Positions 4,159-52,277 of a stretch of DNA of 64,000 nt are shown here, in pieces (position 1 is the first letter of the stretch; every line of letters starts with the position of its first letter). A program made the translations under genes and the position numbers. The DNA comes from Calditrichales bacterium. GTDB taxonomy: Bacteria; Calditrichota; Calditrichia; Calditrichales; J004. Under the pieces are notes generated by a model. It was not told where the DNA came from and made no database searches. It saw only the letters and a program-made list of their open reading frames with translations. The stretch lies in the NCBI GenBank assembly GCA_965267575.1, contig OZ254086.1, positions 1,664,141-1,728,140 on the forward strand, given 5' to 3'.

Positions 4159-4339
4159 GGGGGTACCCTCGTGAAATTGAAAAGCTTAAGTTAATGATAA
4201 TTACGCAAGCTTTTTTTAAAGGGCAAGTTTTATTGTGAAACCGATGCTGCTTTTTGAGTGATGTGCTTAATCTTTTTGCACATCAAACCGAGTACTTGCC
4301 CTGATAAAAATCCAACTTACTATCTTTCAAGACCGGAAC

Positions 4340-5917: not shown

Positions 5918-5944
5918 GTTAACACTATCTATTGCCGGAGTTGT

Positions 5945-17187: not shown

Positions 17188-17302
17188 CAAACCCGAAAAG
17201 AAAATTCCGCTCGGTTCATGGAAGCGCATGTACGCCCTCGTGCTGGGCAACCTGGTTTTCCTGATCTTCCTGTTCTACCTCTTCCGGAGCCTGTTTGAAT
17301 GA
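17180..17302 (+). CDS. 40-aa single-pass membrane micro-protein (putative symporter accessory subunit)
   Basis: MSDKPEKKIPLGSWKRMYALVLGNLVFLIFLFYLFRSLFE. Its ATG overlaps the PIG-L stop region and its stop overlaps the symporter ATG (ATGA). Below the ORF-track length cut as an ATG ORF. Confidence 0.45.
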   Translation: MSDKPEKKIPLGSWKRMYALVLGNLVFLIFLFYLFRSLFE

Positions 17303-18996: not shown

Positions 18997-19037
18997 GAAG
19001 CACTCGTTTCGGCAACTGTAACAGGCAAAAATTATTC

Positions 19038-36118: not shown

Positions 36119-37975
36119 TTACTTGATAAGAACCAGCTTCTGGCTTAAAGCCCGGCCGGTCGCTACAAGACGAACGAAATAAATCCCGGATGCAAGCTCT
36201 TCGCCCGAATAGCGCTGAGAATGCAGGCCGGGATTTTTTTTGCCTTCAACCAGGGTCGCCACAACGCGCCCGTTGATGTCATAAATTTTTAGGGCAACTG
36301 TTTCGGTCCTGTCAAGCTTGTAGCGAATGTTTATCTGGCTGTTAAAGGGATTGGGATATGCCGGAAGCAGTTCAAATGTTGTGGGACTGTTTGATTGCAG
36401 CCGCTCATCCTGCAGTGACGTCAGGATCAGGTCTTCAGGGCGGTTGCTGTTAACCAGCATAACCGCGTCGCTGAACAGGATATCACCATCGGGCAAGTTG
36501 TGATTATCCAGGCGCAGGAACGTTTGTTCACCCTCCTGCAAATAAACATCGCCCACCTTATGCCAGCGGCGGTGCCCGGGCTTGCGCTGATTGACATACA
36601 CCGTGTCAGCGGGTCCATTGCTGTGCAGAAGCTGGTAAGGTGCCTGCTGATGTGCCGCAAATTGATATATAATCCAGGCGTATACTTCGTACCAGCCTTC
36701 ACGCGGCACCTGCGCGCTGTAAGTGATGGCGGCGGCGTCATTATCGGTAGCGTAAATACAATCGGTATCTTCAAAACCCGGCAAAGTTGTGTAGGTCGTC
36801 CACGACCCGCTTTGCTGCACGGCGCTGCTGTCTTCGTTAATTATGATGGCCGGCAGGCGCCAGTCAGCCGGACGGTAGGGTACGTTTACTTTTTCGCTGT
36901 AAGGTCCGTTTTTCAACGTTTCATAATAAGCGCCCAGCCGCGCGTGATACCAGATCACGTGACCGGTCAGCCCCTCGTTGCGCGTTGTCTCAATCATTTT
37001 TACCAGCTCGGAAGGCGGCGTCTCATTGCTGTTTGCGATTGTCGAGATGCCGGGATAGACCAATGTGTCGTTGTTTGTTTTTTTCAGTTCTTCGTTGAGA
37101 CGGAAAGAATAGCTGCTGTTGCTGCTGTAGTAGACCTGCGGTGTCACCGTATCCAGCCAGCCATTGTTGATCCATGCCGGCCAGTCCTGGCAGAATTGTT
37201 CATAGCCGTACCACAGAGGCGCGTTGCTCACGTGCATTTCGGGATTAACCGCTTTTATGGAATCATACATTTCAGCCATGAACAGGTTAAGCTTGTCCGC
37301 CCGCCAGCGAATCCAGGCGGAGTTGCCGATGCTTGTGGGCGGCTCCTGCCCGTTGTGTTCGGACTTATATAGTTCCACCGTGGCCGAATCATAACCGCAA
37401 TCCAGATCGGGGTAACGGACGCGGTCGAATTCTACGCCATCCAGATCATAGCGGCGAACGGCATCCAGTACGAATTGTATCAGAAATTCCTGGGCATCGC
37501 GGTTTACGTGGCTTAGCCATTTGTACTGCACGCCGCCGTTCGCTTCGAAGGTGGTATTGCCGTTACGCTTTTCGGCAAACCATTCCGGGTGTTCATTAAA
37601 CAGGGCAAGATTGTTTCCCGCACAGGCCTGGAAGCCGGCCTCGAACCAGGCATCCACATTCAGACCATAGCGGTGGCCTTCGGCGATCATATCGGCCATG
37701 ACATCGCGGCCTTCTTCCAGCAGCGGGTCCGTGTAATGGCCCGTTTCTTCATGAAACACATTGCTGCGGAAGTAGGGCCAGCCAAAGCGCCATACATCCA
37801 CGTATACAGTGTTAAAATTATTTTCTGAAAGCAGGCGCATCGCTTCGCTGATTTCTTCCTTGGACGGTATATCGTTACCGGCCCAGGCCAGCCAGGCTCC
37901 GCGTACTTCTCCTGCGTTAAGACCAAAGGCCATCAACAATGTAATTACGATGGAAATAAACAATCTTTTTATCAC
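36119..37975 (-). CDS. GHL10 (DUF187) glycoside-hydrolase-like enzyme + beta-sandwich domain + T9SS CTD
   Basis: 618 aa. GTG start preceded by an AGGGGA Shine-Dalgarno, then a signal peptide. EVRGAWLAW...NFNTVYVDVW...EAGF resembles DUF187. The CTD is AYPNPFNSQINIRY...SGIYFVRL...QKLVLIK. Confidence 0.7.
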   Translation of the reverse strand: MIKRLFISIVITLLMAFGLNAGEVRGAWLAWAGNDIPSKEEISEAMRLLSENNFNTVYVDVWRFGWPYFRSNVFHEETGHYTDPLLEEGRDVMADMIAEGHRYGLNVDAWFEAGFQACAGNNLALFNEHPEWFAEKRNGNTTFEANGGVQYKWLSHVNRDAQEFLIQFVLDAVRRYDLDGVEFDRVRYPDLDCGYDSATVELYKSEHNGQEPPTSIGNSAWIRWRADKLNLFMAEMYDSIKAVNPEMHVSNAPLWYGYEQFCQDWPAWINNGWLDTVTPQVYYSSNSSYSFRLNEELKKTNNDTLVYPGISTIANSNETPPSELVKMIETTRNEGLTGHVIWYHARLGAYYETLKNGPYSEKVNVPYRPADWRLPAIIINEDSSAVQQSGSWTTYTTLPGFEDTDCIYATDNDAAAITYSAQVPREGWYEVYAWIIYQFAAHQQAPYQLLHSNGPADTVYVNQRKPGHRRWHKVGDVYLQEGEQTFLRLDNHNLPDGDILFSDAVMLVNSNRPEDLILTSLQDERLQSNSPTTFELLPAYPNPFNSQINIRYKLDRTETVALKIYDINGRVVATLVEGKKNPGLHSQRYSGEELASGIYFVRLVATGRALSQKLVLIK

Positions 37976-37990
37976 GGTTTTCCCCTATAC

Positions 37991-38012
37991 AAAAAAGGGG
38001 GCCGCAGCCCCC
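37991..38012 (-). terminator. rho-independent terminator between two co-directional genes
   Basis: On the minus strand GGGGGC-tgcg-GCCCCC is followed by TTTTTT. It lies 8 nt after the stop at 38021 and 16 nt before the GTG at 37975. Confidence 0.7.
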
Positions 38013-38020
38013 ATATAAAA

Positions 38021-39967
38021 CTACTTTATTAAAACCATCTTTCTGGTGGATATAATCCTGTCGTTGGCAACCAGCCTGTAGAAGTAGACACCGCTGGTCA
38101 GGCTGCCGGCATTGAATGTGACCGAATGTGTGCCGCTGTTTTTGTTGCCCTGGTCTACTTTGGCAACCTGGCGTCCGGCTATATCAAAAATCTCGATACG
38201 CACGTCTGCTTTGCGCGGCAGACTATAGGTAATTTCGGTTGTCGGGTTGAAAGGGTTGGGATAGTTCTGCTCCAGCGTAAAGCGGCGCGGCTGCTCAATG
38301 GGCTTGTCGCCGATAGCCGTCAGCGTGCTGCGCACCACGTTCACATAATTGGTATCCGTCGGAAAGTAGCCCTCGCCAAGCTGGTCGACATAGTAATAAT
38401 GGGTAAATTTGGCATTGGCGCCCAGCGGGTTTTTATCCGGGAAGGAAGCTTCCACGCCCTGACCGTTGCTGGCCATGTAGGCCATAACCGCCACTTCGCC
38501 GGTCAAAGCGCCCACACCCGCGTCGTTACGGATTGCGGAGACTTCGGTAACCTTGTCCTCGCCCTCATCGGCAAAAGCCAAAGCACCCTGCGCGGCCACG
38601 TTGCCGTCAAAAAGGTTTTCTTCCCAGCTGCTGCCGTTCCATTTCCAGATGGTGCCCAGAAGGAAATCGGCCTCATCCCAGGGCTCCACTTCATAAACGA
38701 TGTCCGCCTTGAAAGGCAGAGCGTTTATGCCGCCGCGGGCCACCGGTGGTGTCTGTGTGCCGTTGGGACCTTCGGGATCCAAATCAAAGGCGATATAGAG
38801 AAATCTTTCTTCCGTCGGGTCCACCAGGCCGTCACCGCTGAGGCCAAAGAAAACTTTGCCCACGGACCAGGTGAAGAACATATCACGGCCATTGCTAGTG
38901 CCAACGTGATCGGTCGGGAAATAGTCATTGATACCGTCAATGCTCACCACCAGGTTGCTGTCGCGCGGAGCAGAAGCTTTCAGCAGATTATCCATGCTCA
39001 GCGAACCGATGCTGTTAAAGCCCATCAGCGTGATCAGCGAATGCCGCCGGGAATCATAATCCACAACCGCCGTGGCGTTGGGGTTGCTGTTAAGGCCGGA
39101 GCTGTAGAACAGCGCCGATGAGTCGGAGTTTTCCCCAAAATAGTCGTAGGTGACTGTGCCCAGTTCATCCTCAAAATAGCGCACGGTTCTCACCGTTGCG
39201 GCGTAGGCATTGGAGACGGTTAACAGCTTGTATTGGCCAAGTTTTAGTGCTTTCACATGAGACGTGCCGCCGGGTGACGCAAAGCTGTCCGGTACGCTGG
39301 AAATAAGGGTGCCGCCGGATGAAAGCAATGTAGGCGGGTGCTCGGGGTTGGCCGAATTGATCCATAAGTTGCCGTTTGCCAGCGGTGAAATGCCGTGGCG
39401 GGCATTTCCGGGTACCGGTAATACCGGCTGACTGTCCAGGGTTGCCGTAGCGCCGCCGGTGTCACGGATAACAACAACATCGACCGTCTCAAAACCGGAC
39501 GAGTAAAGCAGCTTATCGGAGCCGAATGTTCTTACCGCGAAAGAATCGCCGTAGCGTTTATCATCCAGCGCGTCATCAAATATGGTTTCAGGTGCGGCCG
39601 ATTCATCGGCGTAGCGGTATATTTTGAATGTGGCGCCCGGTGTAAATTGCGGCGCTGAAAGATTGCACACATAGATCGTACCATCTTCGGCCACGTCAAT
39701 CAGGTTGATCGGGTACGTGCCTCCACTCAGCCCTTCGGTATTCATCATGCCAAGGGAGTCGCCGGTGGCCGCATCCAGAATGATAATACGCACGCCGCCC
39801 TTACGCGTAGCCACCAGCACATGGTCGGTTGTGGCGTTATAGGCTACGCCCCGGGTATTGTCGCCGCCGATGTCAATAAATTCGTGGCTGACCCAGTTTA
39901 GCGGGTAGGTGCTTTGGGCAAGCGACATGCCCAGAAACAACCCAAGAAAAAGTAACATTCGCTTCAT
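38021..39967 (-). CDS. secreted protein of unknown function with T9SS CTD
   Basis: 648 aa. AAGGAG Shine-Dalgarno and a signal peptide. The CTD is NYPNPFNPTTEITY...SGVYFYRL...RKMVLIK. The N-terminal region looks beta-propeller-like, but I did not recognise a family. Confidence 0.6.
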   Translation of the reverse strand: MKRMLLFLGLFLGMSLAQSTYPLNWVSHEFIDIGGDNTRGVAYNATTDHVLVATRKGGVRIIILDAATGDSLGMMNTEGLSGGTYPINLIDVAEDGTIYVCNLSAPQFTPGATFKIYRYADESAAPETIFDDALDDKRYGDSFAVRTFGSDKLLYSSGFETVDVVVIRDTGGATATLDSQPVLPVPGNARHGISPLANGNLWINSANPEHPPTLLSSGGTLISSVPDSFASPGGTSHVKALKLGQYKLLTVSNAYAATVRTVRYFEDELGTVTYDYFGENSDSSALFYSSGLNSNPNATAVVDYDSRRHSLITLMGFNSIGSLSMDNLLKASAPRDSNLVVSIDGINDYFPTDHVGTSNGRDMFFTWSVGKVFFGLSGDGLVDPTEERFLYIAFDLDPEGPNGTQTPPVARGGINALPFKADIVYEVEPWDEADFLLGTIWKWNGSSWEENLFDGNVAAQGALAFADEGEDKVTEVSAIRNDAGVGALTGEVAVMAYMASNGQGVEASFPDKNPLGANAKFTHYYYVDQLGEGYFPTDTNYVNVVRSTLTAIGDKPIEQPRRFTLEQNYPNPFNPTTEITYSLPRKADVRIEIFDIAGRQVAKVDQGNKNSGTHSVTFNAGSLTSGVYFYRLVANDRIISTRKMVLIK

Positions 39968-40006: not shown

Positions 40007-40642
40007 CTAAAAATTATACCGGATACCCAGGCCAAGATTGAGCGTCTGCAAACCGGAGACATTTTCCAGTTCGATGCCGGGTTGCAGCGTCGGCCACAAT
40101 TCGCCGATCACCACACGGTAATAGACAACGGGTTCCAGCTCCAGCCTGTTCCAGCTGTAGTTAAAAGACAGGCCGCCTTTAAAGCCCCAGTTCCACTCCT
40201 CCAGCCTTCGCTCGGCGATGAGCGGTATGGGCGGGTTGGCGTCCGGCTCGGCTTCAACGCGCCCGCGGATGCCCTTCCAGTAGTAGAGCCCTCCGCCCAC
40301 ATTGAGGCGCATGGTTATTCCGGAAAATTGTGTAAGCGGATAGAGTCCGTTCAGTGTGAAGGAGCCGTGCTCCAGAAAAAGATCCACGCGCCGCTTGCGC
40401 TCGGCATCCAGGTTCTCGTCATCAAATCGCGCGTAGGAAGCGCCATATTCCAGGTACCATTGGTTGTCTGCCTGCTTGCCGAACTTAACGGCAATGGCCG
40501 GCGCCGGGTTAAACCAGTTGGCCAGTTCTCCGATCGGTACACTGTACTCCGGCTGCACCGAAACAGACCAGCCGCCTTGCTGCGCCTGCAGCGGTAAAAG
40601 CAATCCGCCGCATAAAAAAATGAATGCAATCTTTTTAAGCAT
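40007..40642 (-). CDS. small outer-membrane beta-barrel protein
   Basis: 211 aa with a signal peptide (LLLPLQAQQ), alternating beta-strand pattern and an OMP-type C-terminus ...GIRYNF. Confidence 0.5.
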   Translation of the reverse strand: MLKKIAFIFLCGGLLLPLQAQQGGWSVSVQPEYSVPIGELANWFNPAPAIAVKFGKQADNQWYLEYGASYARFDDENLDAERKRRVDLFLEHGSFTLNGLYPLTQFSGITMRLNVGGGLYYWKGIRGRVEAEPDANPPIPLIAERRLEEWNWGFKGGLSFNYSWNRLELEPVVYYRVVIGELWPTLQPGIELENVSGLQTLNLGLGIRYNF

Positions 40643-40650
40643 TTTTAAAC

Positions 40651-41514
40651 CTAATATTTGATGACCAGGCCAAACTGCAGCATCATTTTGTAGTAGACAG
40701 GAAAATCACGCTGATCGCCGGCCGGTATGTTGAATAATTTCTCCAGTGGTTCGACGAGATCACGATCGATATAGCCCACCATACGCCCATCAAGCTCCAG
40801 GTCAAATCCGGGACTGAGCGTATAGGTGACACCCAGCGCCGGAGCAATAAAAAAGCGTGTGCCGTCTTTGGGCGGTGCGAAGTGGGTCAGGTCAAAGTCG
40901 TAATTATAATCGTACTCTTCGGTCGAAGTGGAATCCAGTTTGAAACGTTTGATCCAGTGCTCGTCCATGCGCAGTTCGCGTGTGTAGAGGCTGGCGCCCA
41001 CACTCAGTTCGGCGTTGACCTGCCACTTTTCCAAAAGGCGTTCACTCCAGGAAGCGCCAATGCTCAGGCGCAGCTCTTTCAGCGATTGTATCGGTTCAAA
41101 CACGGCGGAGTAGATGCCATCGTTACTTTCATAGCGCAGTGTGCGGTTCACTTCCGCCAGGTCATTGCCGCGGGCACCAATGAATTCCAGGTAAGTGTCT
41201 TCCCAGTAGGGCCAGTTCCATTCGGTCAAAACATCATCCTGGTAGAGACGTTGGTTGTCGTAGCTGACGCGGAAGATCCCTTTGAGCTTTTCGGTAAACT
41301 TGTAGCGGAATTCCCCGGAGAAGTTAAAGCCACCGTCAATGCTGTCAGGCAGGCCCAGGTAATGGGCGCCGATGCCGGTGTTTTCCGCGCTGCGCGTTCT
41401 GTCCAGAATGTTGATGTGCCCGGCGCTGAATTTTACTTCCAGCGGCAGGTTTTGAGCTGCGCTTGATGTCAGCAGAAGAAACAGGGTTATCGGAATAATC
41501 AGGAAATAACGCAT
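40651..41514 (-). CDS. outer-membrane beta-barrel protein, unknown family
   Basis: 287 aa with a signal peptide (LLLTSSAAQ) and an OMP-type C-terminus ...GLVIKY. Its start abuts the upstream stop (41514/41515). Confidence 0.5.
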   Translation of the reverse strand: MRYFLIIPITLFLLLTSSAAQNLPLEVKFSAGHINILDRTRSAENTGIGAHYLGLPDSIDGGFNFSGEFRYKFTEKLKGIFRVSYDNQRLYQDDVLTEWNWPYWEDTYLEFIGARGNDLAEVNRTLRYESNDGIYSAVFEPIQSLKELRLSIGASWSERLLEKWQVNAELSVGASLYTRELRMDEHWIKRFKLDSTSTEEYDYNYDFDLTHFAPPKDGTRFFIAPALGVTYTLSPGFDLELDGRMVGYIDRDLVEPLEKLFNIPAGDQRDFPVYYKMMLQFGLVIKY

Positions 41515-42459
41515 CTACAACTCCATCATCAGGGTATAGCGCATGGTGCTGTCCAGGTAATCATGCTGCATCCAGCCAAAATCAAAGCGCACGTTGCGGC
41601 CCTTAAAATCAAAGCGCAGACCACCGCCCAAACTGAGGTTTTCATCTTCCAGGCCGAATTTATAGCCGGCGCGGGCCACAAAGCGTTTCCACAAAACCTG
41701 CTCCAGGCCAAGCTGCACATACTCGCTGATATCATTGGGATGGGCCGCCTCGGCGATCAGGGTTAAATAGGTGTCTTCGCCACGCTCGCCCCACACCTCC
41801 GCGGAAGCGCCCAGCTTAAGCATCTGCGGCATTTTGAATTTCTCTTCCAGGTATTTGGCCTCCAGCCCGAAGTGCTGCAGGTAAGCGCCGATGCGCAGGC
41901 TGTGAAAACGGGTAAAGTAGAGAAAGCCGATATCCACTACCACGTTGTCCGCGCTGTATGTGTCGATCGTTTCATTGACATATTTGACCGTGCCGCCAAA
42001 ACTGAACAGGTCGGTCAGACGCCGCGAGTAGGTTAAGCCGATCGAATAGGCCGACGCGCTGTACGTGCCCAGGTCAACAAAGGAGCCGCCTTCCGTCGGG
42101 AAGGGGTTGCGTGTTTTGGCCATCTCGCCAAAATCGAAATAGATCACCTGCAGGCCGATGGTGCCTAGTCCGGGCCGGTTAAAGGTAATGCCCGCCGCCT
42201 GGTGTGTTGTCTCCACGTACCAGCTGGCATAAGTAAGCTGGGCGCTAAGCGTCTTATCAGACAAACTGGCCAGGGCCGGGTTCATGCTCAGGCCCTCAAC
42301 ACCGGCATCGGGCAGGGTTATACCCGTTTCGCCCAGGCCGACATAGCGCGCGGAAACCGGGATATTTAAAAAGACAAATCCCGTGGTGCCTACTTTGGAA
42401 AAATCCTGCGCCGGCAAAACGGTTGCAAGGATCAGTAAAATGATAATGTGACGTTTCAT
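41515..42459 (-). CDS. PorV/PorQ-family (FadL-like, UPF0164-type) outer-membrane protein
   Basis: The track start is TTG 42492; I prefer ATG 42459 (MKRHIIILLILATVLPAQ). GTTGFVFLNIPVSARYVGLGETGITLPDAGVEGLSMNPALASL matches the N-terminal PorV/PorQ signature as I remember it (G..FL.I...AR..GMG.A......D......NPA.LA). Confidence 0.6.
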   Translation of the reverse strand: MKRHIIILLILATVLPAQDFSKVGTTGFVFLNIPVSARYVGLGETGITLPDAGVEGLSMNPALASLSDKTLSAQLTYASWYVETTHQAAGITFNRPGLGTIGLQVIYFDFGEMAKTRNPFPTEGGSFVDLGTYSASAYSIGLTYSRRLTDLFSFGGTVKYVNETIDTYSADNVVVDIGFLYFTRFHSLRIGAYLQHFGLEAKYLEEKFKMPQMLKLGASAEVWGERGEDTYLTLIAEAAHPNDISEYVQLGLEQVLWKRFVARAGYKFGLEDENLSLGGGLRFDFKGRNVRFDFGWMQHDYLDSTMRYTLMMEL

Positions 42460-42527
42460 CGCTTTGGCTTTGGTTTGTCCGCTCTTCCGCAACGGACGTG
42501 TATGAATTTTCGCTACAGAATCTCCGG

Positions 42528-44534
42528 TTATTTCACGATGGCGAATTTACCTTTTCGGACATCGCCCTGTTCATTCTCAATGTGATAGAAGTAGAGCCCG
42601 CTTTTTACAAGCTGCCCGAACTGGCTAACCTGGTTCCAGGCAATCACGCCGGATTCGGGGTTGTCGTGTTCGATTTTTCTCACCAGGTCACCACGTACGG
42701 TAAAGATGCGCAGGGTGCATTTACGCGGCACGTTTACGAATTGTATGATGTTGCCGTCGCCCAGACCCGGCAGACCGGAATTTCGGTAAAACGGGTTGGG
42801 CGAAACAGCGATGTCTTCCAGGCTTCTTTCCGTAGGACGCAGGGTGCTGCGCACCGGGAATGATGTTTTATTGGCAAACAGCGATGACTCCAGCGGCGGC
42901 ACTTCCACGGTGGGGTCAACCGCCCAGGAACCGTGCCCGTTGTCGTAGCTGGTAACCGCGTAGTAGTATGAATAGCCCAACGCCACATCATTGTCGATAA
43001 AGCGGTAAGTGCCACTGGCTGCGTCGTAAAAATCCTCGTCCCCGATAGAAATATCGGCAATTTCCTCCCATGGACCTATCGGCAGCCGGAAGCTGCGGTA
43101 GATACGATATCCGGCAACATCAACAACGCCCTGGTGCGGATCGGGGATTGTTTCAACTGTATCCCCGAACGTGACCACATTGGCGATAACACCACCTTCA
43201 TCAAGCGAGTTGACGCTGAATTCCGGTCCGGGCGGCGGCATCGGTACAATATAATTATTGGCGTAGGTCTGGCTTACGCGGTTGCTGAGATAAGTCACTG
43301 CGGAATCACCGGCTGCGCGGATGGTCTCTTTAGTTGAGGAAGGATCTATGGCTGTTTTATAGTCGGCGCCGCCCACAAACTGCGCGATAACAATTTTGAC
43401 CGAATCACGACCACGGGCCTGCAGCGTGTAGGGGCCCAGCGAAAAATTAGCAAGCGTGCGGCTGCGGCCCATCGCGGGATCATCCGCAGAGCTGAAAGCA
43501 TCGGAAAGTTTGCTTACATCTTCCATGGCCTCGTATTTGGCATCCAGGCCCGTAACACCTAAAAACGGTGCGGTGGAGCTGCCCGAAGGAGGCGCCGTGG
43601 ACCAGGTAAAGCCGTTGATGCGATTGGCCACGCCAAATGTATCCGGCGAGATATATAAAAATTTGATGCCCGCGTGTCCGTGAGCGATAAACTCCGGTTC
43701 GGTATCAAAATTGTCTTCAACGGGATCATAAACCTGGTTCTCAAAATAGTCGTAGCTGTCATCAACGCCGGGGCTGTCCTTGAAATCACCCGCCCAGAAG
43801 GTCAGCAGCCGTTCGTTCGGGTCCCAGTAGCTTTCCACGTTACGCGCGCCCGACGTCAGGTTGGGATAAGTTAGATTCCAGCCGCGGTTATTTGGCGATA
43901 AGGCGTATGTAAATAAAAGATAAACACCTTCCAGATCGTTGCGGCGGTTGACGTTGGTTAAAATGTATTCGCTAATAATGTAGTCCTGGTCTACTTCGGA
44001 GCCGGACCATTGCCGCACAACGCGGCTAACGCTCACCGGTATATTCTGGTTGTCTGTAGGCTGGAACCAGGCCCCGTTAAATTCCCAGTTGGTTTCAACG
44101 ACTTCTTCGGCGTCGAATGGATTCTGGGCCAGGTGCCAGTTGGCGCCATCCTTATAGCGCGAACGGTGGCGCGAAACGAGATAGCGGTTGGCGTCGCCGC
44201 TTATGCCGACCGATGCTACACTGTTAACGGCAAAGTCATCCCAGCCGTAGACCGTTCCGGAATCGGTTTTGGCCGTAATAAAAAAACCGCCGGTAACAAG
44301 GTAGCTGTTATAGCCGCCAATGTTCACGGACAAACTGTCCTGATTGTATCCCGGCCAGTCAAGACCGTAGCCGTTGCGCTGCCAGGCCGTCATCGGCGCG
44401 ACATCCTGAGAGAAATGAAGCGAATGCCAGAGCCTGCCCCTGTCAAGGATTATAAAATTACCCTCTGTAAGCTGAGCAAACGCCGAAGTCGAAGTCAGTA
44501 TCAGAAGTACGAATATGATATTTTTCAATCGCAT
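42528..44534 (-). CDS. secreted protein of unknown function with divergent T9SS/FlgD-Ig-like C-terminal domain
   Basis: 668 aa with a signal peptide (STSAFAQ). The C-terminus is VSPNPFYRNSG...CTLRIFTVRGDLV...SGLYFYHIENEQGDVRKGKFAIVK. Its ATG abuts the TBDR stop (44534/44535). Confidence 0.6.
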   Translation of the reverse strand: MRLKNIIFVLLILTSTSAFAQLTEGNFIILDRGRLWHSLHFSQDVAPMTAWQRNGYGLDWPGYNQDSLSVNIGGYNSYLVTGGFFITAKTDSGTVYGWDDFAVNSVASVGISGDANRYLVSRHRSRYKDGANWHLAQNPFDAEEVVETNWEFNGAWFQPTDNQNIPVSVSRVVRQWSGSEVDQDYIISEYILTNVNRRNDLEGVYLLFTYALSPNNRGWNLTYPNLTSGARNVESYWDPNERLLTFWAGDFKDSPGVDDSYDYFENQVYDPVEDNFDTEPEFIAHGHAGIKFLYISPDTFGVANRINGFTWSTAPPSGSSTAPFLGVTGLDAKYEAMEDVSKLSDAFSSADDPAMGRSRTLANFSLGPYTLQARGRDSVKIVIAQFVGGADYKTAIDPSSTKETIRAAGDSAVTYLSNRVSQTYANNYIVPMPPPGPEFSVNSLDEGGVIANVVTFGDTVETIPDPHQGVVDVAGYRIYRSFRLPIGPWEEIADISIGDEDFYDAASGTYRFIDNDVALGYSYYYAVTSYDNGHGSWAVDPTVEVPPLESSLFANKTSFPVRSTLRPTERSLEDIAVSPNPFYRNSGLPGLGDGNIIQFVNVPRKCTLRIFTVRGDLVRKIEHDNPESGVIAWNQVSQFGQLVKSGLYFYHIENEQGDVRKGKFAIVK

Positions 44535-47438
44535 TTAAAAGGTGATCTCCGCTGTAAAAAAGATTTGCCGCGGTATATTGCGGAAAGTCTGGAAATAGTT
44601 GTAGATCTCAACGTCTCTTTGGATTCTTTCACCATTTATGTCATAGTCTCTGCTGTTATATGTCACGCCTCGCAGAACCCATCTTTGAAGTTCTTCGCTT
44701 CCACTGATCGGCGTCAGGTGCTGGTTGTCAAAAAGATTGAGAATACGCATGCCCAGCTTCAATTTGTAGTCGCCAAAGCCAATGCTTTTTTGCAGTTTCA
44801 AATCGGTCGATGATTCCAGCGGATAGCGGCGGTTGGATTCCACTTCAAAATTGGTCTGGAACGTTGGTGAATAAAAATAGGGCGCGCCGCTGGCCAAACG
44901 GTAAACGACATTGGCCGTAAAATTTTCCAGCGGATAGAATCCGAATATTTGAGGACCCTCATTATCAAACCAGTTATAGGTAAGCGAGCCGTTAAAACGA
45001 TGGGTCCGGTCTTCAGGTGCTATCAAATCCGTGGCATCATAAATAAAACGATCTTCAAGCAGAGCGCTTGCCTGGGCCACTTCTTTAATATCGCCGTAAT
45101 AGCCAAAGGTTGTCTGGCTCAACGAGTAGCTGAAGCTGTAAAGCAGGTTACGGTCCTGGCGGTTGCGGAACTGAATCTCCACGCCGCGTGAGTTGCCGTA
45201 GCCGTTGTTTCTGTATGAAAGATAGGTCCCGGTTAGGTTGCGGTCGCTGGTGGAGCTTGCGGTGGGCGATTCAATGTAAACAACGGAAATCTGATCCTGC
45301 AGGTCGTTGTAGTAAGTCACGACGTCCAGTTGGTGCGTGTCCCATAGATTTTGTTGTACGCCCACTTCATAATTAACACTCAGCTTTGGCTTCAAATTAG
45401 GGTTACCATAATGATTCCAGCCATTGAAAGTTTGCTGGTCAAGCGCCTGATTAAAGGTGGGCATGGAACGGAAATGACCATACTGAACGCGGAAGGCGGT
45501 TCTTTCCCCAATCGGGAAGGAGATACCAAGCCGCGGGGAGAAGAAGGAGTAAGTTTTGGAATCCTCCCACTCGGGCAAGCCTCGATTGGTGTTGCCATCG
45601 GCCTGATAAAAAATATTGTGTTCATCAACAGGAACATCGGCGCCAAAATTGTAAGCATCAAAGCGCACACCGGCATTGGCAATCATACCCGAAAATTCCA
45701 GCTTGTCCTGAACGTAGGCGGCCGTGTACCAGGATTTTGCCTTGTAGTTACTGGCAAACCCGGTGCGCCAGATATAAGCAGAAACCGTCTGCGATGAAGA
45801 GGCATTATAGTTCTGATCAAGAATCCAGCCTTCAAATCCTGCTTTAAAAAGATTGCCTTTATCCAACTGGCTGCTAAAATGGCTTTTCAATTCGTAAAAA
45901 TCAGAAAGCGAAGCCTGGTTGTAGAGGCTGGACCAGGTAAAGTAAGGACGATAATCAAGTGTGGTTATGCTTTCAAGAACACGGTCTTCTATTTCAGGAT
46001 TTAATTGCCGGTCGCGATCGGTTCCCGGTGTGGGCGTTTGCAAAGCATAAAGCCGTTCACTCTGATGCGTGAACGTTGTTTCCAGAAAAGATCGCGGCGA
46101 GAAAATGAGCTTGTAGTTTACGCTTTGCGCAAAAACGGTTTCTTCGCGCGGCGAGTCGTAGATCAGTGTGTATTTACGCTTGGCGCCGTACGTGCCCCAC
46201 AGGCCGGCCCAGCGTATATCGCGTGAACCTGAGCCGATACCACTGTAAAAATACTGGTACAGGCCGGTAAACTTCAGGTGGTGCTTCTCGTTTGGTTTAT
46301 AGGCCACCACCAGCGAATAGTTTTGCAGACGCTGGATTTTTTCGCGGGTGGGCAGGCGTGTCGGATTGTTTTTAAGTTCGCCGGAAAGGAAAAATGTCAT
46401 GTTGGTGTTGGCGCCGCCCAACGGGCCGCCCAGACTGAACAGGTAGCGCGTGTACGGATCGTTGCGGTAATCGTAAACACCCAAAGGATTGTCCGGCCCC
46501 GGTGTGTGATTGCGTATCCATTTTTCGTAATTAAGCTGCGCCAGGTTGCTATCTACCATACCGGTATTTTGGTCGCGGTAAAGATTGTACCAGGTTTCAT
46601 CCAGTTCGCCGTAGAGCTGCCATTCCGGTTGATCTTTGGAGTAGAGATATTCGCCCCAATGGTATTTACCGGCCGGGCGGTATTCCATCATAAATCCGCC
46701 GGAAAACTGCGGTCCGCCATCTTTTGTGACGACTTTGACCACACCGGCCTGGGCGTTGCCGTATTCGGCGTTAAAGCCCCCTGTGATCAGCTCCATCTGC
46801 TCCACAGCCAGCGGGTTTATGTCATATTTCCAGTCGTTGTCCGACTTCTGGCCTGTCCCGTAAGCCGGCTGCCCGGAGTTGGTGGTAATACTTTTTATAC
46901 CGTTGATTGTGTAGTTGATCTCGTCGGAGCCGCTGCCGCGGATGGAGAGCGTACCATCGGCGTTGCGGTTGATGGCTGCGTTCAGTTCCAGCACGTCGGT
47001 CAAAGCTTCGGCGGCCACGGCACGTATTTCCTGCGCTTCAAAGTGGCGCGAGCTGAATGTTTTGTCTGTTTCCACGATCGGGCGGTCGGCTGTTACCACA
47101 ACGGCTTCGCTCATCTCCACGGCCTCTTCCCTCAGCTGCTGGTCGATGCGCGTGGTGCGGTCGATCTTTACGGATACATCTTCCACAACCACGGTCTGGT
47201 AACCGATGTAGGAAAATTCCAGGGTGTGGCTGCCGGGCGGCACGTTGAGGATAACGTAGTTGCCGTCTATATCGGTAGAGGCGCCAAGCTGCTGATTCTT
47301 AACGACGACGTTAACGCCGATGAGCGCTTCGCCGGTGCCGGCATCACTGACATAACCGGCTATTTTGCCGCTCTGGCCGAAAGCAATCGAAGAAAAAACA
47401 AAGCAAAACAAAATGGAGTAATAATTGAATCGATTCAC
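44535..47438 (-). CDS. TonB-dependent receptor with CarboxypepD_reg-like N-terminal domain (SusC-like architecture)
   Basis: 967 aa with a GTG start. GKIAGYVSDAGTGEALIGVNVVV...TDIDGNYVILNVPPGSHTLEFSYIGYQ is followed by a plug region (...LSIRGSG.DEINYTINGI) and a long barrel ending ...FTAEITF. Confidence 0.85.
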   Translation of the reverse strand: MNRFNYYSILFCFVFSSIAFGQSGKIAGYVSDAGTGEALIGVNVVVKNQQLGASTDIDGNYVILNVPPGSHTLEFSYIGYQTVVVEDVSVKIDRTTRIDQQLREEAVEMSEAVVVTADRPIVETDKTFSSRHFEAQEIRAVAAEALTDVLELNAAINRNADGTLSIRGSGSDEINYTINGIKSITTNSGQPAYGTGQKSDNDWKYDINPLAVEQMELITGGFNAEYGNAQAGVVKVVTKDGGPQFSGGFMMEYRPAGKYHWGEYLYSKDQPEWQLYGELDETWYNLYRDQNTGMVDSNLAQLNYEKWIRNHTPGPDNPLGVYDYRNDPYTRYLFSLGGPLGGANTNMTFFLSGELKNNPTRLPTREKIQRLQNYSLVVAYKPNEKHHLKFTGLYQYFYSGIGSGSRDIRWAGLWGTYGAKRKYTLIYDSPREETVFAQSVNYKLIFSPRSFLETTFTHQSERLYALQTPTPGTDRDRQLNPEIEDRVLESITTLDYRPYFTWSSLYNQASLSDFYELKSHFSSQLDKGNLFKAGFEGWILDQNYNASSSQTVSAYIWRTGFASNYKAKSWYTAAYVQDKLEFSGMIANAGVRFDAYNFGADVPVDEHNIFYQADGNTNRGLPEWEDSKTYSFFSPRLGISFPIGERTAFRVQYGHFRSMPTFNQALDQQTFNGWNHYGNPNLKPKLSVNYEVGVQQNLWDTHQLDVVTYYNDLQDQISVVYIESPTASSTSDRNLTGTYLSYRNNGYGNSRGVEIQFRNRQDRNLLYSFSYSLSQTTFGYYGDIKEVAQASALLEDRFIYDATDLIAPEDRTHRFNGSLTYNWFDNEGPQIFGFYPLENFTANVVYRLASGAPYFYSPTFQTNFEVESNRRYPLESSTDLKLQKSIGFGDYKLKLGMRILNLFDNQHLTPISGSEELQRWVLRGVTYNSRDYDINGERIQRDVEIYNYFQTFRNIPRQIFFTAEITF

Positions 47439-47523: not shown

Positions 47524-48690
47524 TTATCGGCGAAGAAAAGCCGGATTATGAGGCAGGCGGGCTTTAGTTTTGTAAGGGCCATTTAACAGCGTTTTTGCCA
47601 ACAAATTGTTTTTTTTGCGCAGGCCCTCGTAAAAGAAGAAAACCTCTCCGTTAAGCCCAAAGCTTCGATTTAAGCGCACTTTCTCCAGCAGCATATCCTC
47701 CTCAATCACATATTCGCCCACATTCATCAATATGCCGGGATATATAATTTGCAGATCGTCTTCATTCAGGCCGACCGAATCGCTGCGAAAGGCCTGCAAA
47801 GTCTCCTCATAGCCATCCAGCGTGTAGCGATAGCATTGCGGATTAATCACGTCGGCGTACCCGCCGTGGAGCCAATCGGGCCAGACCTGTAAATACTCCT
47901 GGTAGGACCAGGGGTAAATGCTGGGCGACCACGACACCCATACCGGCGACTTGATTGCCTTTACGCCTTCATACAGCCGGCGCCCGAAATCATTCAGCTT
48001 GGCGGCACGCCAGCGCAGCCACTCAGGGTCGTGATGGTCGCGCGGCGGTTCCTCGCCCGTTTCGCTCTCGTAAAGTGCGCGCGTGTACGGGCTATAACCC
48101 CCTTCCGATGGAATTGCCGGCAAACGGTCATCGCCCTGAACCCCGTCCACGTCATAATTGCGCACCACCTCCTGTACAAGACTCAAAAGCAAACTCTGCA
48201 CATCAGGGTGGAAAGCATTCATCCACTCAAAGCCGTTCTTTGTAAGCAGGTTGCCTTCCGCATCCAACGCGGCCCATTCCGGAAAGGCGCGCAAAATGTG
48301 ACCGCCGCCCTTTTCATGGGAGGCGGCAAAACCGTACTCAAACCAGGCGATGACAGCGATGCCACGCTTGTGCGCCTCTTCCACGACTTCGGCTAAAGGG
48401 TCCCTTCCGGCGTAGGCGCTGTCAATGGGCAGATCAAACAGTGAATCCATCACCGCGCTGGGATAGAGCGTGCGCGCGTCGTTCCAGACGACGGGGTAAA
48501 CCACGTTAAAATTATGTTGCGCCAGAAAGTCCATGGCCTCGGCGATGTTTTCACGGCTGTCAAGCACATCGCTGTCCACGTTTGTAAGCCAGACGCCGCG
48601 CCATTCATAAAAATTATCAGGCTGCGGTTCTTCGGCGCTGCAGGAGGAAAGCAGGGATAAAAGCATAAGCAGTATCGCGATTGTTTTCAT
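47524..48690 (-). CDS. GHL10 (DUF187) glycoside-hydrolase-like lipoprotein
   Basis: 388 aa with the lipobox LLSSC. WRGVWLTNVDSDVL...HNFNVVYPVVW...GRDPLAEVVEEAHKRGIAVIAWFEYGF. Its ATG overlaps the upstream stop (ATGA at 48687-48690). Confidence 0.75.
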   Translation of the reverse strand: MKTIAILLMLLSLLSSCSAEEPQPDNFYEWRGVWLTNVDSDVLDSRENIAEAMDFLAQHNFNVVYPVVWNDARTLYPSAVMDSLFDLPIDSAYAGRDPLAEVVEEAHKRGIAVIAWFEYGFAASHEKGGGHILRAFPEWAALDAEGNLLTKNGFEWMNAFHPDVQSLLLSLVQEVVRNYDVDGVQGDDRLPAIPSEGGYSPYTRALYESETGEEPPRDHHDPEWLRWRAAKLNDFGRRLYEGVKAIKSPVWVSWSPSIYPWSYQEYLQVWPDWLHGGYADVINPQCYRYTLDGYEETLQAFRSDSVGLNEDDLQIIYPGILMNVGEYVIEEDMLLEKVRLNRSFGLNGEVFFFYEGLRKKNNLLAKTLLNGPYKTKARLPHNPAFLRR

Positions 48691-50486
48691 GGTAGTTCCG
48701 CTGTAAGGGTTGAAAAGGGCTCAAAAATACTGTCCACAAGAAAAGCGAATTCGGCGCGGGTGATCGGTTTGTGCATTTTGCCGTTAGTGCCCTCCAAAAA
48801 ATGCAGCGGACGTTTGCCGGATTTGTCCGTCTCCTGGCGGGATTTTATCTGGGCGCTCAGCAACAACGTCAGAGCATCAACGCGCGTTACCGGTGTCGAT
48901 TTCGGTTTAAGGTCAAAAGAGGCGATGATATGCTTTTCCGCGAGCTTATCCAGAATGCGCTGCATCTCTTCCAGCGTTAGTTCAGCCTGAGGGTAGAAGT
49001 TGTAATGGTTGGCCCAGTTTTCGGTTTTGGCCTCGCCGCCCATAATGCCGCATACTGCCAGGCGCTGCACGGCGTAGAAAAACCAGTCATTGGCCTTCAG
49101 GTCCGTAAAAGGCATCAGCCAGCAGCCCGCTTCCAGCAGCGATTGCTGTACGGCGCGGACATCCGTTTTAGGCACGGGGAGGTTTTTTTTCGCGCAGAGT
49201 GCCGCTGCGGCTCCTGCTGCCTGCCCGATGCCCATCACCACCGGCTGCAACCTTGTGGCGCCGTTGGCCAGGTGGCTCACCGATATTGCTTTTTCGGCCA
49301 CCAGCAATCCGCCGATTTCCTTAGGCAGCAGAGCGCCAAAAGGCACATAAAAAGCTTTAATATCCGGCAAGTCTTCTTTCTCCTTCAAAGGCCCGCGATC
49401 GTGATGGTGGTCCAGCGGGTAGTTGCCCACGGCGATGGCATGATCCAGCAAGTGTCTCGATTCTGCAGCGTATGGTTCGGCCAGGTCGTTGGCTGTCAGG
49501 GTTGCCCGTCCCTGAAGGCGTCGTCCTTCGCGATGGTAGGGGATCATGGCCAGACCGTCCGCGGTGGGAAATTCATCGCCGGCAATGCCCCAGTTTTTAA
49601 AACCAAGCTCATGCTGGATAAAATAGACAAACTGCAGTGTCCGGACTTTGGCTTGCTCAAATGCGTCTTTGCGGGCATGCTCGTCGGCCTCCGCTACATT
49701 CACATAATAATCGTTGCCGCGGATGGGCCAGTTGATCATGGTTTTGTTGTTTGGCAGGCGGCCGTAGCTCAGCATTTTTTCAGCCGCAGGCGGATTGTTT
49801 TTGTCACCGGATGAAGCAAACTCGGCGCAGCAGCCGCGGAACAGCTCCGGGTCGTAACCTGCGGGGCGGGCAATGGTCTTATCCGCGTCTTTGCCGTAAT
49901 CCTTCAGGATGGCCACCCAGGTCAAATCCTGAATGATGTCGTCGGCGGTTTTAGGCGCGCCTTTTTCGTTAAACGTTTCCCGGGCGTCCCGTCCCACGTT
50001 GTAGGCGCAACCGGCTGCAGCCAGCACATCGCCCAGCTCCGTCGCATCAATCGTTATTTTTGCTTCTACATCCAGCTCACCATCGGCTGAAACAAAACGC
50101 GCCCCGCGAACAACACCGTCATTTTTGAGTACGGCATCAAAACGCAGTGGCCAACGGAACTTCAGATTTTTTTCAGCGGCGATTATATCCAGCAAAATCG
50201 TTCGCGCCACCGACGGTTCAAAGCAGGTGTGGCTCACCCAGCCCGTGGCCAGTTTGTCCGCGCCGCCGTAATGCTGTTCAAGGCGCCGGCGCAGCTCGCC
50301 AAAAATACCGGAAGGCAGGTCATGGTTGCCATCGATGCAACTTACGCCGGCAGCGGTCAGCATTCCGCCCGGCCAGTCATGCTCTTCGGTTAAAACGACC
50401 TTTGCTCCCAGCCGCGCCGCCTGGATAGCCGCGCTAACTCCGGAAGCCCCGGCCCCGATTACCAATACATCACAGGATAGATTCAT
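48687..50486 (-). CDS. FAD-dependent oxidoreductase (FAD_oxidored-type, cytoplasmic)
   Basis: 599 aa. The N-terminal Rossmann motif is DVLVIGAGASGVSAAIQAARLGAKVVLTEE..WPGGM. There is no signal peptide and no Shine-Dalgarno. Confidence 0.8.
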   Translation of the reverse strand: MNLSCDVLVIGAGASGVSAAIQAARLGAKVVLTEEHDWPGGMLTAAGVSCIDGNHDLPSGIFGELRRRLEQHYGGADKLATGWVSHTCFEPSVARTILLDIIAAEKNLKFRWPLRFDAVLKNDGVVRGARFVSADGELDVEAKITIDATELGDVLAAAGCAYNVGRDARETFNEKGAPKTADDIIQDLTWVAILKDYGKDADKTIARPAGYDPELFRGCCAEFASSGDKNNPPAAEKMLSYGRLPNNKTMINWPIRGNDYYVNVAEADEHARKDAFEQAKVRTLQFVYFIQHELGFKNWGIAGDEFPTADGLAMIPYHREGRRLQGRATLTANDLAEPYAAESRHLLDHAIAVGNYPLDHHHDRGPLKEKEDLPDIKAFYVPFGALLPKEIGGLLVAEKAISVSHLANGATRLQPVVMGIGQAAGAAAALCAKKNLPVPKTDVRAVQQSLLEAGCWLMPFTDLKANDWFFYAVQRLAVCGIMGGEAKTENWANHYNFYPQAELTLEEMQRILDKLAEKHIIASFDLKPKSTPVTRVDALTLLLSAQIKSRQETDKSGKRPLHFLEGTNGKMHKPITRAEFAFLVDSIFEPFSTLTAELP

Positions 50487-50793: not shown

Positions 50794-52257
50794 ATGCAAA
50801 ACCTGCAACTGATCTTATTCCTGCTGATTTTCCTGGTGATGGCCGGCAGCATGTTTCTGCGCAAAATACCGGCTTTGCTGGCCCTGCCGCTAATGGCTTT
50901 CCTGATCCCGCTTGCCGGCGGTGTCGATCTGGACAGTACCATCCAGCTTGTTATCGGGGAAGGCGCGCTTAAACTGCACAACGCCTATACTGTAGCCATT
51001 TTCGGAAGCATGCTCAGCATTTTGCTGCAAAAAACCGGCGTGGCCGAAAGCTTTATCAAAAAAGGCGCGGAGCTGGCCGGCGACAATCCCTGGACCATCG
51101 GCGTGTTGATGATGATTTTGATTACCCTGCTGTTTACCACGCTGGGCGGTCTGGGCGCCATCATTATGGTGGCCACCATCGTCCTGCCGATTATGTCATC
51201 CATTGGTATCGGGCCTATGACGGTGGTAGGCATTTTCCTGATCGGCCTTAGTATGGGCGGTATCCTTAACGCCGGCAATTGGGCGGTGTACGTCGACGTC
51301 ATGGGACTTACCGTGGAAGAAATCCGCCCGTTTGCGTTGACCATGTTTGCCATAACCTTTGTGGCCGCGCTGCTCTACATCACCATTCAGTTGTACCGTG
51401 ACGGCCACGACCTGCAGTGGAAACGAATAGGCTGGGGTGCCGCCATTTTTTTAGCGCTGATTGTCGTGGCTGCCACCTTATACCTTAACGCCGGTGATGC
51501 CACCCGTGCCCAACTGGCGCGGTTTGGCGATATTCTCTCCAACGGCCTGAGCTGGCTGGTGGGGATCGGCCTGGCCTTGCTGGCGCTGTTGGTGATCATC
51601 CGTTTTGTGCGCTCGCTGCGTTCGCACTCCCGCGAAATTTACTGGGCGGCCTATTTCACACCGCTGGTGCCGCTGCTGTTGATCCTTGTTTTTGCCATGA
51701 ATTTTATTGCCGCCTTTATCTGCGGGTTGATTTACGGATTTATGGCCACGTACCGCAAAGGCAGTCTTAATACCCTGGTGCAATCGGTGCTGGAAGGCGG
51801 CGCCGTGGTTATGCCCGCCGTAGCCCTGATGCTAGGCATCGGCATGCTGTTGAACGCCATTATCGGACCGGGGCCATCCTGGAGCGGTGAGTGGCCCGTG
51901 TTAACATTGTTGCGTCCCTTGCTTTTGGAGATTGTGCCCGAACAAAGCTGGAGTTATGTGTTGCTTTTTGGCCTTGCCGCACCCCTGGCGCTCTACCGCG
52001 GACCGCTTAACGTCTGGGGTATGGGTTATGGACTGGCCGCCGTGTTTCTGGCCAGCGGTATGCAGCCCGGCGCGGTGATGGGCGTGCTGCTGGCAGTGGG
52101 CCAGGTGCAGGGTATCAGCGATCCGACAAACACGCACAACGTCTGGCTGGCCAATGAAATGCAGCAGGACGTGCAAAAAGTATTGTGGAACACCATCCCT
52201 TACACATGGGCGGTGGCGGTGGTGGGCTTGATAGCCGCTGCAATCATATTCTATTAA
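50794..52257 (+). CDS. polytopic permease (ion-transporter-superfamily-like; GntP/CitMHS-like by appearance)
   Basis: 487 aa, hydrophobic almost throughout (at least 12 TM segments). The family was not identified with certainty. Confidence 0.6.
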   Translation: MQNLQLILFLLIFLVMAGSMFLRKIPALLALPLMAFLIPLAGGVDLDSTIQLVIGEGALKLHNAYTVAIFGSMLSILLQKTGVAESFIKKGAELAGDNPWTIGVLMMILITLLFTTLGGLGAIIMVATIVLPIMSSIGIGPMTVVGIFLIGLSMGGILNAGNWAVYVDVMGLTVEEIRPFALTMFAITFVAALLYITIQLYRDGHDLQWKRIGWGAAIFLALIVVAATLYLNAGDATRAQLARFGDILSNGLSWLVGIGLALLALLVIIRFVRSLRSHSREIYWAAYFTPLVPLLLILVFAMNFIAAFICGLIYGFMATYRKGSLNTLVQSVLEGGAVVMPAVALMLGIGMLLNAIIGPGPSWSGEWPVLTLLRPLLLEIVPEQSWSYVLLFGLAAPLALYRGPLNVWGMGYGLAAVFLASGMQPGAVMGVLLAVGQVQGISDPTNTHNVWLANEMQQDVQKVLWNTIPYTWAVAVVGLIAAAIIFY

Positions 52258-52277
52258 TTTGATAAAGATAAAGAATA

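Follow-up and report, generated by a model that had tools for sequence, protein, structure and literature searches.

How does a TonB-dependent receptor obtain a partner at the cell surface when no SusD lipoprotein is encoded beside it? This question is raised by five minus-strand genes at positions 40007-47438 of a 64,000-nucleotide (nt) stretch of DNA from a Calditrichales bacterium (contig OZ254086.1 of assembly GCA_965267575.1, positions 1,664,141 to 1,728,140), the whole of which is referred to as the window. According to the table of open reading frames (ORFs), the genes are spaced by 0-68 nt, and they encode a TonB-dependent receptor of 967 amino acids (aa), a 668-aa secreted protein that we call X, a barrel of the PorV/PorQ family and two small barrels. 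SusC/SusD pairs define nutrient uptake in Bacteroidota and rely on that phylum's route for the export of surface lipoproteins. In our reading, to which we give a probability of roughly 55%, the five genes constitute the outer-membrane uptake module of a glycan-utilization locus centered on GHL10 enzymes, and X, carried on its own PorV-like barrel, serves as the surface partner of the receptor.

The receptor gene (44535-47438, GTG start) is followed on the minus strand by the genes for X (42528-44534, ATG start), the PorV/PorQ-family barrel (41515-42492, TTG start, 325 aa), a 287-aa small barrel (40651-41514, ATG start) and a 211-aa small barrel (40007-40642, ATG start). An earlier note on this DNA had described stop and start positions that abut at 44535/44534 and at 41515/41514, and an 8-nt spacing (40643-40650) between the two small-barrel genes; the ORF table confirmed both. 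The 68-nt gap that it placed in front of the PorV-like gene (42460-42527) holds if translation begins at the ATG at 42459 (a product of 314 aa), but not with the 325 aa that it quoted, which belong to the TTG ORF and leave a gap of 35 nt. Since the N-terminal consensus of the homologs reads MK..., the ATG start is favored and the 314-aa form appears more likely. Sec-type signal peptides can be read off the translations of all five products. Three of the four barrels have an aromatic final residue, and X ends in ...FAIVK. For each of the five ORFs, homologs that follow the same gene order occur in dozens of further genomes, by which comparison they are identified as real genes and not chance ORFs.

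Conservation of the gene order was studied in 84 loci gathered by homology to X, 80 of them genomic loci and four from contig look-ups. By the labels of their metagenome-assembled genomes (MAGs), these loci belong to Calditrichota, KSB1, Zhuqueibacterota, Marinimicrobia, Kryptonia, Ignavibacteria, Rhodothermales, Latescibacterota and Gemmatimonadota, about nine phyla of the Fibrobacterota-Chlorobiota-Bacteroidota (FCB) type. The receptor gene is found directly 5′ of the X gene in all 75 informative cases and the PorV-like gene directly 3′ of it in 77 of 79, whereas none of the 111 genes in the same loci that encode an ordinary type IX secretion system (T9SS) C-terminal domain (CTD) of type A has a PorV-like gene directly 3′. 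The order of the core triad of receptor, X and PorV-like genes is kept in about 80 loci and that of all five genes in about 41-45, with median intergenic gaps of 19.5, 14, 3 and 12 nt along the five, and the arrangement pointed out in the earlier note is thus conserved in relatives. Identity to the window's receptor, X and PorV-like barrel drops in step from locus to locus (about 62/56/57%, 52/47/49%, 41/38/40% and 28/29/28%), and four MAGs hold two triads each (L024/L042, L044/L046, L058/L065 and L071/L083). Judged from these sequence comparisons, the parallel fall and the two-triad MAGs indicate that the triad has been inherited and duplicated as a unit across many FCB-type phyla. The genes beside it differ, including S15 and M20 peptidases and GFO/IDH/MocA oxidoreductases in one locus (L056) and heparinase-like and beta-helix CTD enzymes in another (L075). 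Much like SusC/D pairs, the triad acts as an uptake core of general use, with neighbors that change according to the substrate.

Such adjacency could also reflect co-regulation only, with X and the PorV-like carrier forming a T9SS-displayed surface enzyme or adhesin of the same utilization locus while the receptor works alone, like many TonB-dependent transporters outside Bacteroidota. We consider this rather unlikely. The same loci do contain other secreted CTD enzymes. However, these ordinary secreted enzymes have no such fixed position, whereas receptor and X remain adjacent in every informative locus, often with gaps of 0-20 nt, across phyla in which all other neighbors change.

Protein X consists of a Sec signal peptide, a novel beta-rich N-domain, a fibronectin type III (Fn3)-like domain and a divergent type-A-like T9SS CTD, and it matches no Pfam family. 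Its signal peptide, MRLKNIIFVLLILTSTSAFAQ, ends in ...SAFAQ and has no Cys and hence no lipobox. An AlphaFold2 (AF2) model built from 40 homologs is almost entirely beta, with a predicted local distance difference test (pLDDT) score of 88.8 and a predicted template modeling (TM) score (pTM) of 0.87. In this model, the N-domain (residues 22-430; 43245-44471, minus strand) is beta-rich and ends in a long helix (402-425). It is specific to the family and variable across the superfamily, and it is presumed to be the substrate-binding or active part. Two properties of the N-domain would also suit an enzyme, as expected if the genes were merely co-regulated: it contains many invariant Trp, Arg, Asp and His residues, and Foldseek found a weak likeness to beta-sandwich regions of glycan phosphorylases (GH94) and GH116 enzymes (TM of about 0.27, root-mean-square deviation of about 10 Å). 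The Fn3-like domain (residues 438-560; 42855-43223, minus strand) was delimited by its strand pattern in the AF2 model; Foldseek matched it to FN3 tandems at a probability of 1.0, and a weak profile match to an Fn3-like PDB chain was obtained (E=0.078). The CTD (residues 576-668; 42531-42809, minus strand) is modeled as a seven-strand beta-sandwich, with strands spanning residues 576-666.

The NCBI/ENA call for the X gene (P0001, 621 aa) starts 47 codons late and drops the signal peptide. The gene call of a close relative (P0249) is 668 aa long, and this form is supported by the alignment of homologs and by a protein of that length in the same 90%-identity cluster, found on a JGI/Logan contig. 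The identity of X as a SusD/RagB protein was also considered and was ruled out by the nearly all-beta model, which is not of the tetratricopeptide repeat (TPR) alpha-helical type, and by the lack of a lipobox Cys. Any relation of X to SusD would be one of functional analogy only.

About 63 full-length homologs of X were found, at 36-59% identity. A search of 1.84 billion cluster representatives with the X profile returned 448 clusters, defined at 50% identity, at E<1e-30 and 4053 at E<1e-10, most of which align just to the C-terminal 250-300 residues of X. Distant phyla share only this C-terminal region, from about residue 355 or 425 on. By these alignments, X belongs to a large superfamily in which the C-terminal module is constant and the N-domains vary, and no Pfam or NCBIfam model covers the X family.

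The earlier note had proposed that X ends in a divergent T9SS CTD. Homology to bona fide CTDs and the modeled seven-strand sandwich support this assignment, but the curated cutoff for such domains is not reached. In hhalign comparisons, the CTD of X aligned with two ordinary cargo CTDs of the locus at probabilities of 97.3-97.6% (E of 2e-11 to 4e-12), compared to E=3.5e-50 for the two ordinary CTDs against each other. The best NCBIfam matches of the tail, both weak, were PorZ and PorU, and Foldseek also found PorZ (5m11) and PorU (6za2). These two proteins are known to retain their CTDs, which are held by PorQ and PorV, respectively (PMC10994853, PMC10202324). No match was found between the CTD of X and the type-B models CHU_C (PF13585) and TIGR04131.

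Three further features distinguish this CTD. First, it carries the motifs PNPF and SGxYFY and a terminal GKFAIVK ending in Lys, with P579, N580, P581, F582, G646, Y648 and K663 invariant, and in addition a 9-residue insertion after PNPF and family-specific motifs. Second, it is the most conserved part of X: in 17 loci holding all three proteins compared, identity to the window proteins was 60% for the CTD of X versus 49% for its N-domain, 46% for the CTD versus 49% for the passenger of a 648-aa cargo protein, and 35% for the CTD versus 55% for the GHL10 domain of a GHL10-Golvesin cargo protein. Third, hidden Markov models (HMMs) of the two CTD classes separate them cleanly: X-type tails gave medians of 145 bits with the X-type model and 21 bits with the ordinary model, and ordinary tails gave 0 and 100 bits, respectively. 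By these alignments and profiles, the tail of X is classified as a distinct, constrained subclass of type-A-like CTD.

The 325-aa protein had been assigned by the earlier note to the PorV/PorQ family, and this proved correct. It scored 162.2 bits on the NCBIfam PorV/PorQ family model NF033709 (cutoff 90), covering positions 1-325 of 326, and remained under the equivalog cutoffs for PorQ (NF033711, 114 versus 220), PorV (NF033710, 68.8 versus 250) and PorV2 (21 versus 325). Because its scores fall under the PorV and PorQ equivalog cutoffs, it is classed as a paralog separate from the housekeeping PorV/PorQ. We propose that it serves X as a dedicated carrier and anchor within the T9SS.

PorV and FadL have a common fold, and the protein could instead be a diffusion channel of the FadL type that passes a hydrophobic or amphipathic substrate and has no connection with the CTD of X. 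A profile of 35 members of the barrel family does match TodX/TbuX, which are of the FadL type, at E=1.3e-3, and Rhodothermales loci carry additional FadL-like (PF03349) barrels. However, the same profile matches Flavobacterium PorV (6h3i_F) at E=8.3e-34, about 30 orders of magnitude better, which excludes a generic FadL identity. With the family cutoff passed and the gene tracking the X-type CTD in 77 of 79 cases whatever the chemistry of the locus, a diffusion channel is scarcely credible. The extra barrels, of about 470-530 aa, lie 3′ of the PorV-like gene in Rhodothermales and some others (L066, L075, L077 and L082, at about 11.5-13.1 kb; also L068 at 8162-9718 and L075 at 2916-4517), and they show weak similarity to FadL/Toluene_X and a faint one to the PorV-like family.

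The 967-aa protein carries a CarboxypepD_reg-like N-terminal extension (NTE, residues 26-114) and a plug (128-233), followed by a beta-barrel. It exceeds the Pfam cutoffs for PF07715 (38.3 bits versus 23.9), PF00593 (66.7 versus 27) and PF13715 (76.4 versus 32.2), and among PDB sequences only its NTE found a match. The "SusC-like" label of the earlier note was right as to a TonB-dependent receptor with SusC-like architecture but not as to membership in SusC/RagA, as TIGR04056 gave 95.3 bits against a cutoff of 368.25 and aligned only with its N-terminal part (model positions 2-207). The family models thus place the protein as a TonB-dependent receptor of SusC- or Oar-like architecture outside the SusC/RagA family. 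The absence of a SusD-like protein, also noted earlier, was confirmed by family scans of the nine genes of the co-directional run around the module and of about 30 other ORFs of the window.

The CarboxypepD_reg NTE is a feature of the Oar subclass (PMC6434023), and X always has the receptor gene immediately upstream. Both facts would fit an Oar-like exporter that moves X outward to be received by the PorV-like barrel, in which case the triad would be a self-contained device for surface display. We find this quite improbable. The NTE occurs on SusC importers too; X has a complete T9SS-type CTD (PNPF, GxY and a terminal Lys), and PorV-family barrels are T9SS carriers; and hydrolases are encoded in the loci along with cytoplasmic catabolic enzymes and a possible membrane protein, a set typical of import pathways. 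Oar itself, from Myxococcus xanthus, has the same architecture of NTE, plug and barrel (PMC6434023), but its secreted partner PopC has no CTD and no PorV-like partner, whereas X has an independent export signal.

If the receptor is an importer with X as its surface partner, the module may work as follows, the steps from export onward being ones that we infer from synteny, the specificity of the CTD class and precedent. X would pass the inner membrane via Sec and be recognized by the T9SS translocon through its CTD. The PorV-like carrier encoded directly downstream would then extract X from the translocon in place of the housekeeping PorV. With its CTD uncleaved, X would stay on the extracellular loops of the PorV-like barrel, a retention modeled on PorZ/PorQ, PorU/PorV and the type-B CTD proteins with PorP/SprF. 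Anchored beside or over the receptor, X would capture oligosaccharides freed by T9SS-secreted GHL10 enzymes and pass them to the receptor for TonB-powered import, thereby taking the role of SusD and surface glycan-binding protein (SGBP) lipoproteins without lipidation.

Several points weigh against this proposal. First, the tail of X scored 19.1 bits on TIGR04183, under the cutoff of 23, and gave no match to PF18962 at E≤0.1, so that T9SS secretion of X is deduced from homology. Second, the contact of X with the receptor and its attachment to the PorV-like barrel are proposed from synteny, CTD class and precedent, and the retention of the CTD rather than its cleavage is argued by analogy. Third, the N-domain has no recognizable binding site or known fold and could be an enzyme. 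Fourth, the synteny counts describe X-containing loci only, and two of these loci (L039 and L069) contain the receptor and an X-type gene with no PorV-like gene directly downstream. Fifth, a working T9SS in this organism is implied by the at least six ordinary CTD cargo genes of the window, and its core T9SS genes and housekeeping porV are only implied in the same way.

Compared to known systems, the triad shows both familiar and distinct features. In SusC/SusD (RagA/RagB), as here, a receptor with a CarboxypepD_reg-type extension is encoded immediately upstream of a surface protein of about 70 kDa, and the pair is found amid secreted and periplasmic hydrolases, in multiple copies per genome, with neighbors that vary with the substrate. 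However, the triad receptor fails the SusC/RagA model and no susD is present; the partner is beta-rich rather than TPR helical and has a Sec signal rather than a lipobox, as well as a T9SS CTD; and a third gene, that of the PorV-like barrel, is obligatory in the triad.

Type-A CTD cargo binds the extracellular loops of its carrier PorV inside the SprA translocon (PMC10994853, PMC10202324). In PorZ-PorQ and PorU-PorV of Porphyromonas gingivalis, the PorV/PorQ-family barrel has as its partner a surface protein whose type-A-like CTD is retained and anchors it (PMC10202324); X resembles PorZ and PorU in its tail, and the triad barrel scores higher on PorQ than on PorV. The differences are that this barrel falls under both equivalog cutoffs, that X has no passenger domains of PorZ or PorU, and that the triad is multi-copy and wired to a receptor gene instead of being a single housekeeping component of the T9SS.

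For type-B cargo, PorP/SprF carriers are encoded beside the cargo gene and the cargo stays anchored (PMC10202324, PMC10994853). SprB-SprF thus shares with the triad a distinct CTD class and an adjacent, dedicated anchoring carrier, and the triad shows the pattern of a cognate carrier and cargo, in that the carrier gene adjoins X (77 of 79 versus 0 of 111) and the CTD class is distinct from that of general cargo. Unlike type B, the CTD of X is a type-A derivative, its carrier belongs to the PorV/PorQ family, and the cargo is tied to a receptor and not to gliding.

Lipoprotein-based systems offer two further parallels. TonB-dependent transporters of Bacteroides that lie outside polysaccharide utilization loci (PULs), such as BtuB with BtuG, use stable surface lids (PMC10404256). 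In the Bacteroidota machinery for beta-barrel assembly (BAM), BamG-BamH shows that a FadL-like barrel of 14 strands can use its loops to hold an extracellular protein (PMC12578637). In both cases the partners differ from X in being lipoproteins that take the lipoprotein route and have no T9SS CTD.

The earlier note knew of no description of the way in which receptor, CTD protein and PorV-like barrel are combined here. One part of it, a surface protein held on its own PorV-like barrel, is already established for PorZ-PorQ, PorU-PorV and type-B CTD proteins with PorP/SprF (PMC10202324, PMC10994853), but the coupling of such a pair to a receptor was not found described. What is new here is the fixed coupling to a TonB-dependent receptor, together with a distinct CTD subclass and a different branch of PorV/PorQ. 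No description of the triad was found in the full-text literature, subscription-only papers being outside the scope of the search, and a search for the terms T9SS, Gemmatimonadota and Ignavibacteria in a 2026 review of glycoside transporters gave no hits. The conservation of the triad across many phyla suggests a hitherto undescribed arrangement in which the surface partner of a receptor is fixed with no need for a SusD lipoprotein.

A broader view, which we advance tentatively and at somewhat less than even odds, is that T9SS CTDs are paired with carriers in three classes: type A with PorV, type B with PorP/SprF and, as the third, the triad. Its role would be to fix a lid or binding protein, non-lipidated and exported by the T9SS, permanently to a TonB-dependent transporter. 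It would be a counterpart, possibly an evolutionary forerunner, of SusCD across FCB lineages, existing in hundreds to thousands of variants set apart by the N-terminal specificity domain.

The triad offers a concrete, testable answer to the question of how TonB-dependent transporters come by surface partners in Calditrichota, KSB1, Marinimicrobia, Ignavibacteria, Latescibacterota and Gemmatimonadota, FCB-related phyla that are dominant in sediments, soils and the dark ocean. If true, TonB-dependent uptake and type IX secretion, both hallmark machines of the FCB group, would be connected, the T9SS would gain a new CTD-carrier class, and PUL-like loci would have a simple genomic marker in genomes that give no result in SusD-based PUL prediction. 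The X family alone accounts for at least 448 clusters at 50% identity and E<1e-30.

The two small barrels may be accessory parts of the proposed complex, variable in number and position between lineages. The earlier note had left both unassigned; they are barrels as it stated and are distant paralogs of each other (hhalign probability 96.4%, E=1.3e-9), and the 211-aa one is modeled as an OmpX/OmpA-type barrel. Its AF2 model has eight strands (pLDDT 74.8), and Foldseek matched it to OmpA-TM, NspA, OmpX, Ail and OmpW with E values down to 4e-8 and a TM of 0.77 to NspA. A search with the single 211-aa sequence found two homologs only, and its relatives were reached by profile search; PF13505 is borne by distant relatives and has no match in the window proteins themselves. 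The 287-aa protein carries a large Trp/Tyr-rich insertion, is present in 45 loci of the closer group and has no match in Pfam, NCBIfam or PDB sequences, so that its tie to the 8-stranded fold is solely through hhalign to the 211-aa protein (96%). The small barrels were also considered as relatives of the PorV-like barrel, which was rejected at hhalign probabilities of 11-22%.

In Latescibacterota and Gemmatimonadota, the gene for a 211-aa family member is not found downstream of the PorV-like gene but adjoins the receptor gene on its upstream side. The small barrel may go with the receptor and not with X. The upstream position, at about 4.2-5.5 kb in each locus, was seen in L056, L058, L064, L065, L071, L073, L076, L079-L081, L083 and L084, and L083 contains a second small-barrel/receptor pair on the opposite strand.

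The module lies in a co-directional run from 50486 down to 36119 with GHL10 enzymes and an FAD oxidoreductase, in agreement with the earlier note. Strong terminator-like hairpins on the minus strand were detected only at 38012-37997 and 36012-35985, both outside the five genes. The first, a GC hairpin found by the hairpin scan (37997-38012; GGGGGCTGCGGCCCCC then TTTTTT), sits just 3′ of the downstream gene for the 648-aa protein, and the transcription unit therefore probably extends into this gene as its sixth. A scan for sigma-70 promoters showed no excess over the shuffled expectation, and Rfam gave no RNA element across 35000-58500.

The 648-aa protein (38021-39967, minus strand) is secreted and has an ordinary type-A CTD (PF18962 44 bits, TIGR04183 47 bits), with full-length orthologs in 21 loci. 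By family scans, the last gene of the run (36119-37975, minus strand) encodes a secreted GHL10 enzyme with Golvesin_C and an ordinary type-A CTD. On the other side of the module lie the genes for a GHL10 enzyme (47524-48690, minus strand; PF02638, E=5e-63) whose translation shows the lipoprotein-type signal LLSSC, and for the FAD-dependent oxidoreductase (48687-50486, minus strand; PF12831) that begins the run.

Family scans and synteny also delimited a divergent part of the conserved locus on the plus strand (50794-57904). Its genes are those for an unassigned 487-aa protein, a hydantoinase/oxoprolinase-like ASKHA protein, a DUF5009/NagX-like protein and a third GHL10-Golvesin-CTD enzyme. The 487-aa protein has several hydrophobic stretches and is possibly a membrane protein; its gene and the hydantoinase-like gene form a pair that is conserved beside the module in many loci. 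The locus as a whole spans about 22 kb with three GHL10 enzymes, two of them bearing Golvesin_C and a CTD, and the whole gene set recurs in Marinimicrobia and other MAGs. In many relatives too, the triad is set in this conserved locus, which contains one or two ordinary CTD proteins. Characterized GHL10 proteins include a peptidoglycan lytic transglycosylase (PMC6016235) and a starch-active hydrolase (PMC9967864), and these, together with the NagX-like protein, hint at an amino-sugar glycan as the candidate substrate. As listed, the plus-strand ORFs 54642-56009 and 55901-57904 overlap by 109 nt, and the true start of the GHL10-Golvesin gene at 55901-57904 is probably further downstream.

Ordinary type-A CTD proteins are encoded elsewhere in the window as well: a beta-propeller/DUF5122 protein (26478-28958, minus strand), a DUF4185 protein (61870-63609, minus strand) and the third GHL10 enzyme (55901-57904, plus strand). 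The genes at 14713-20501 (plus strand) and 29191-31905 (minus strand) encode an 824-aa PIG-L-type deacetylase, a sodium:solute symporter, another unassigned 487-aa protein and a GH38 alpha-mannosidase. This deacetylase/symporter/GH38 group may form a second sugar-utilization cluster, and the two 487-aa ORFs of the window are mutually unrelated. A hybrid response-regulator/histidine kinase, followed by a 1474-aa multi-PAS histidine kinase, is encoded at 4340-10369 (plus strand).

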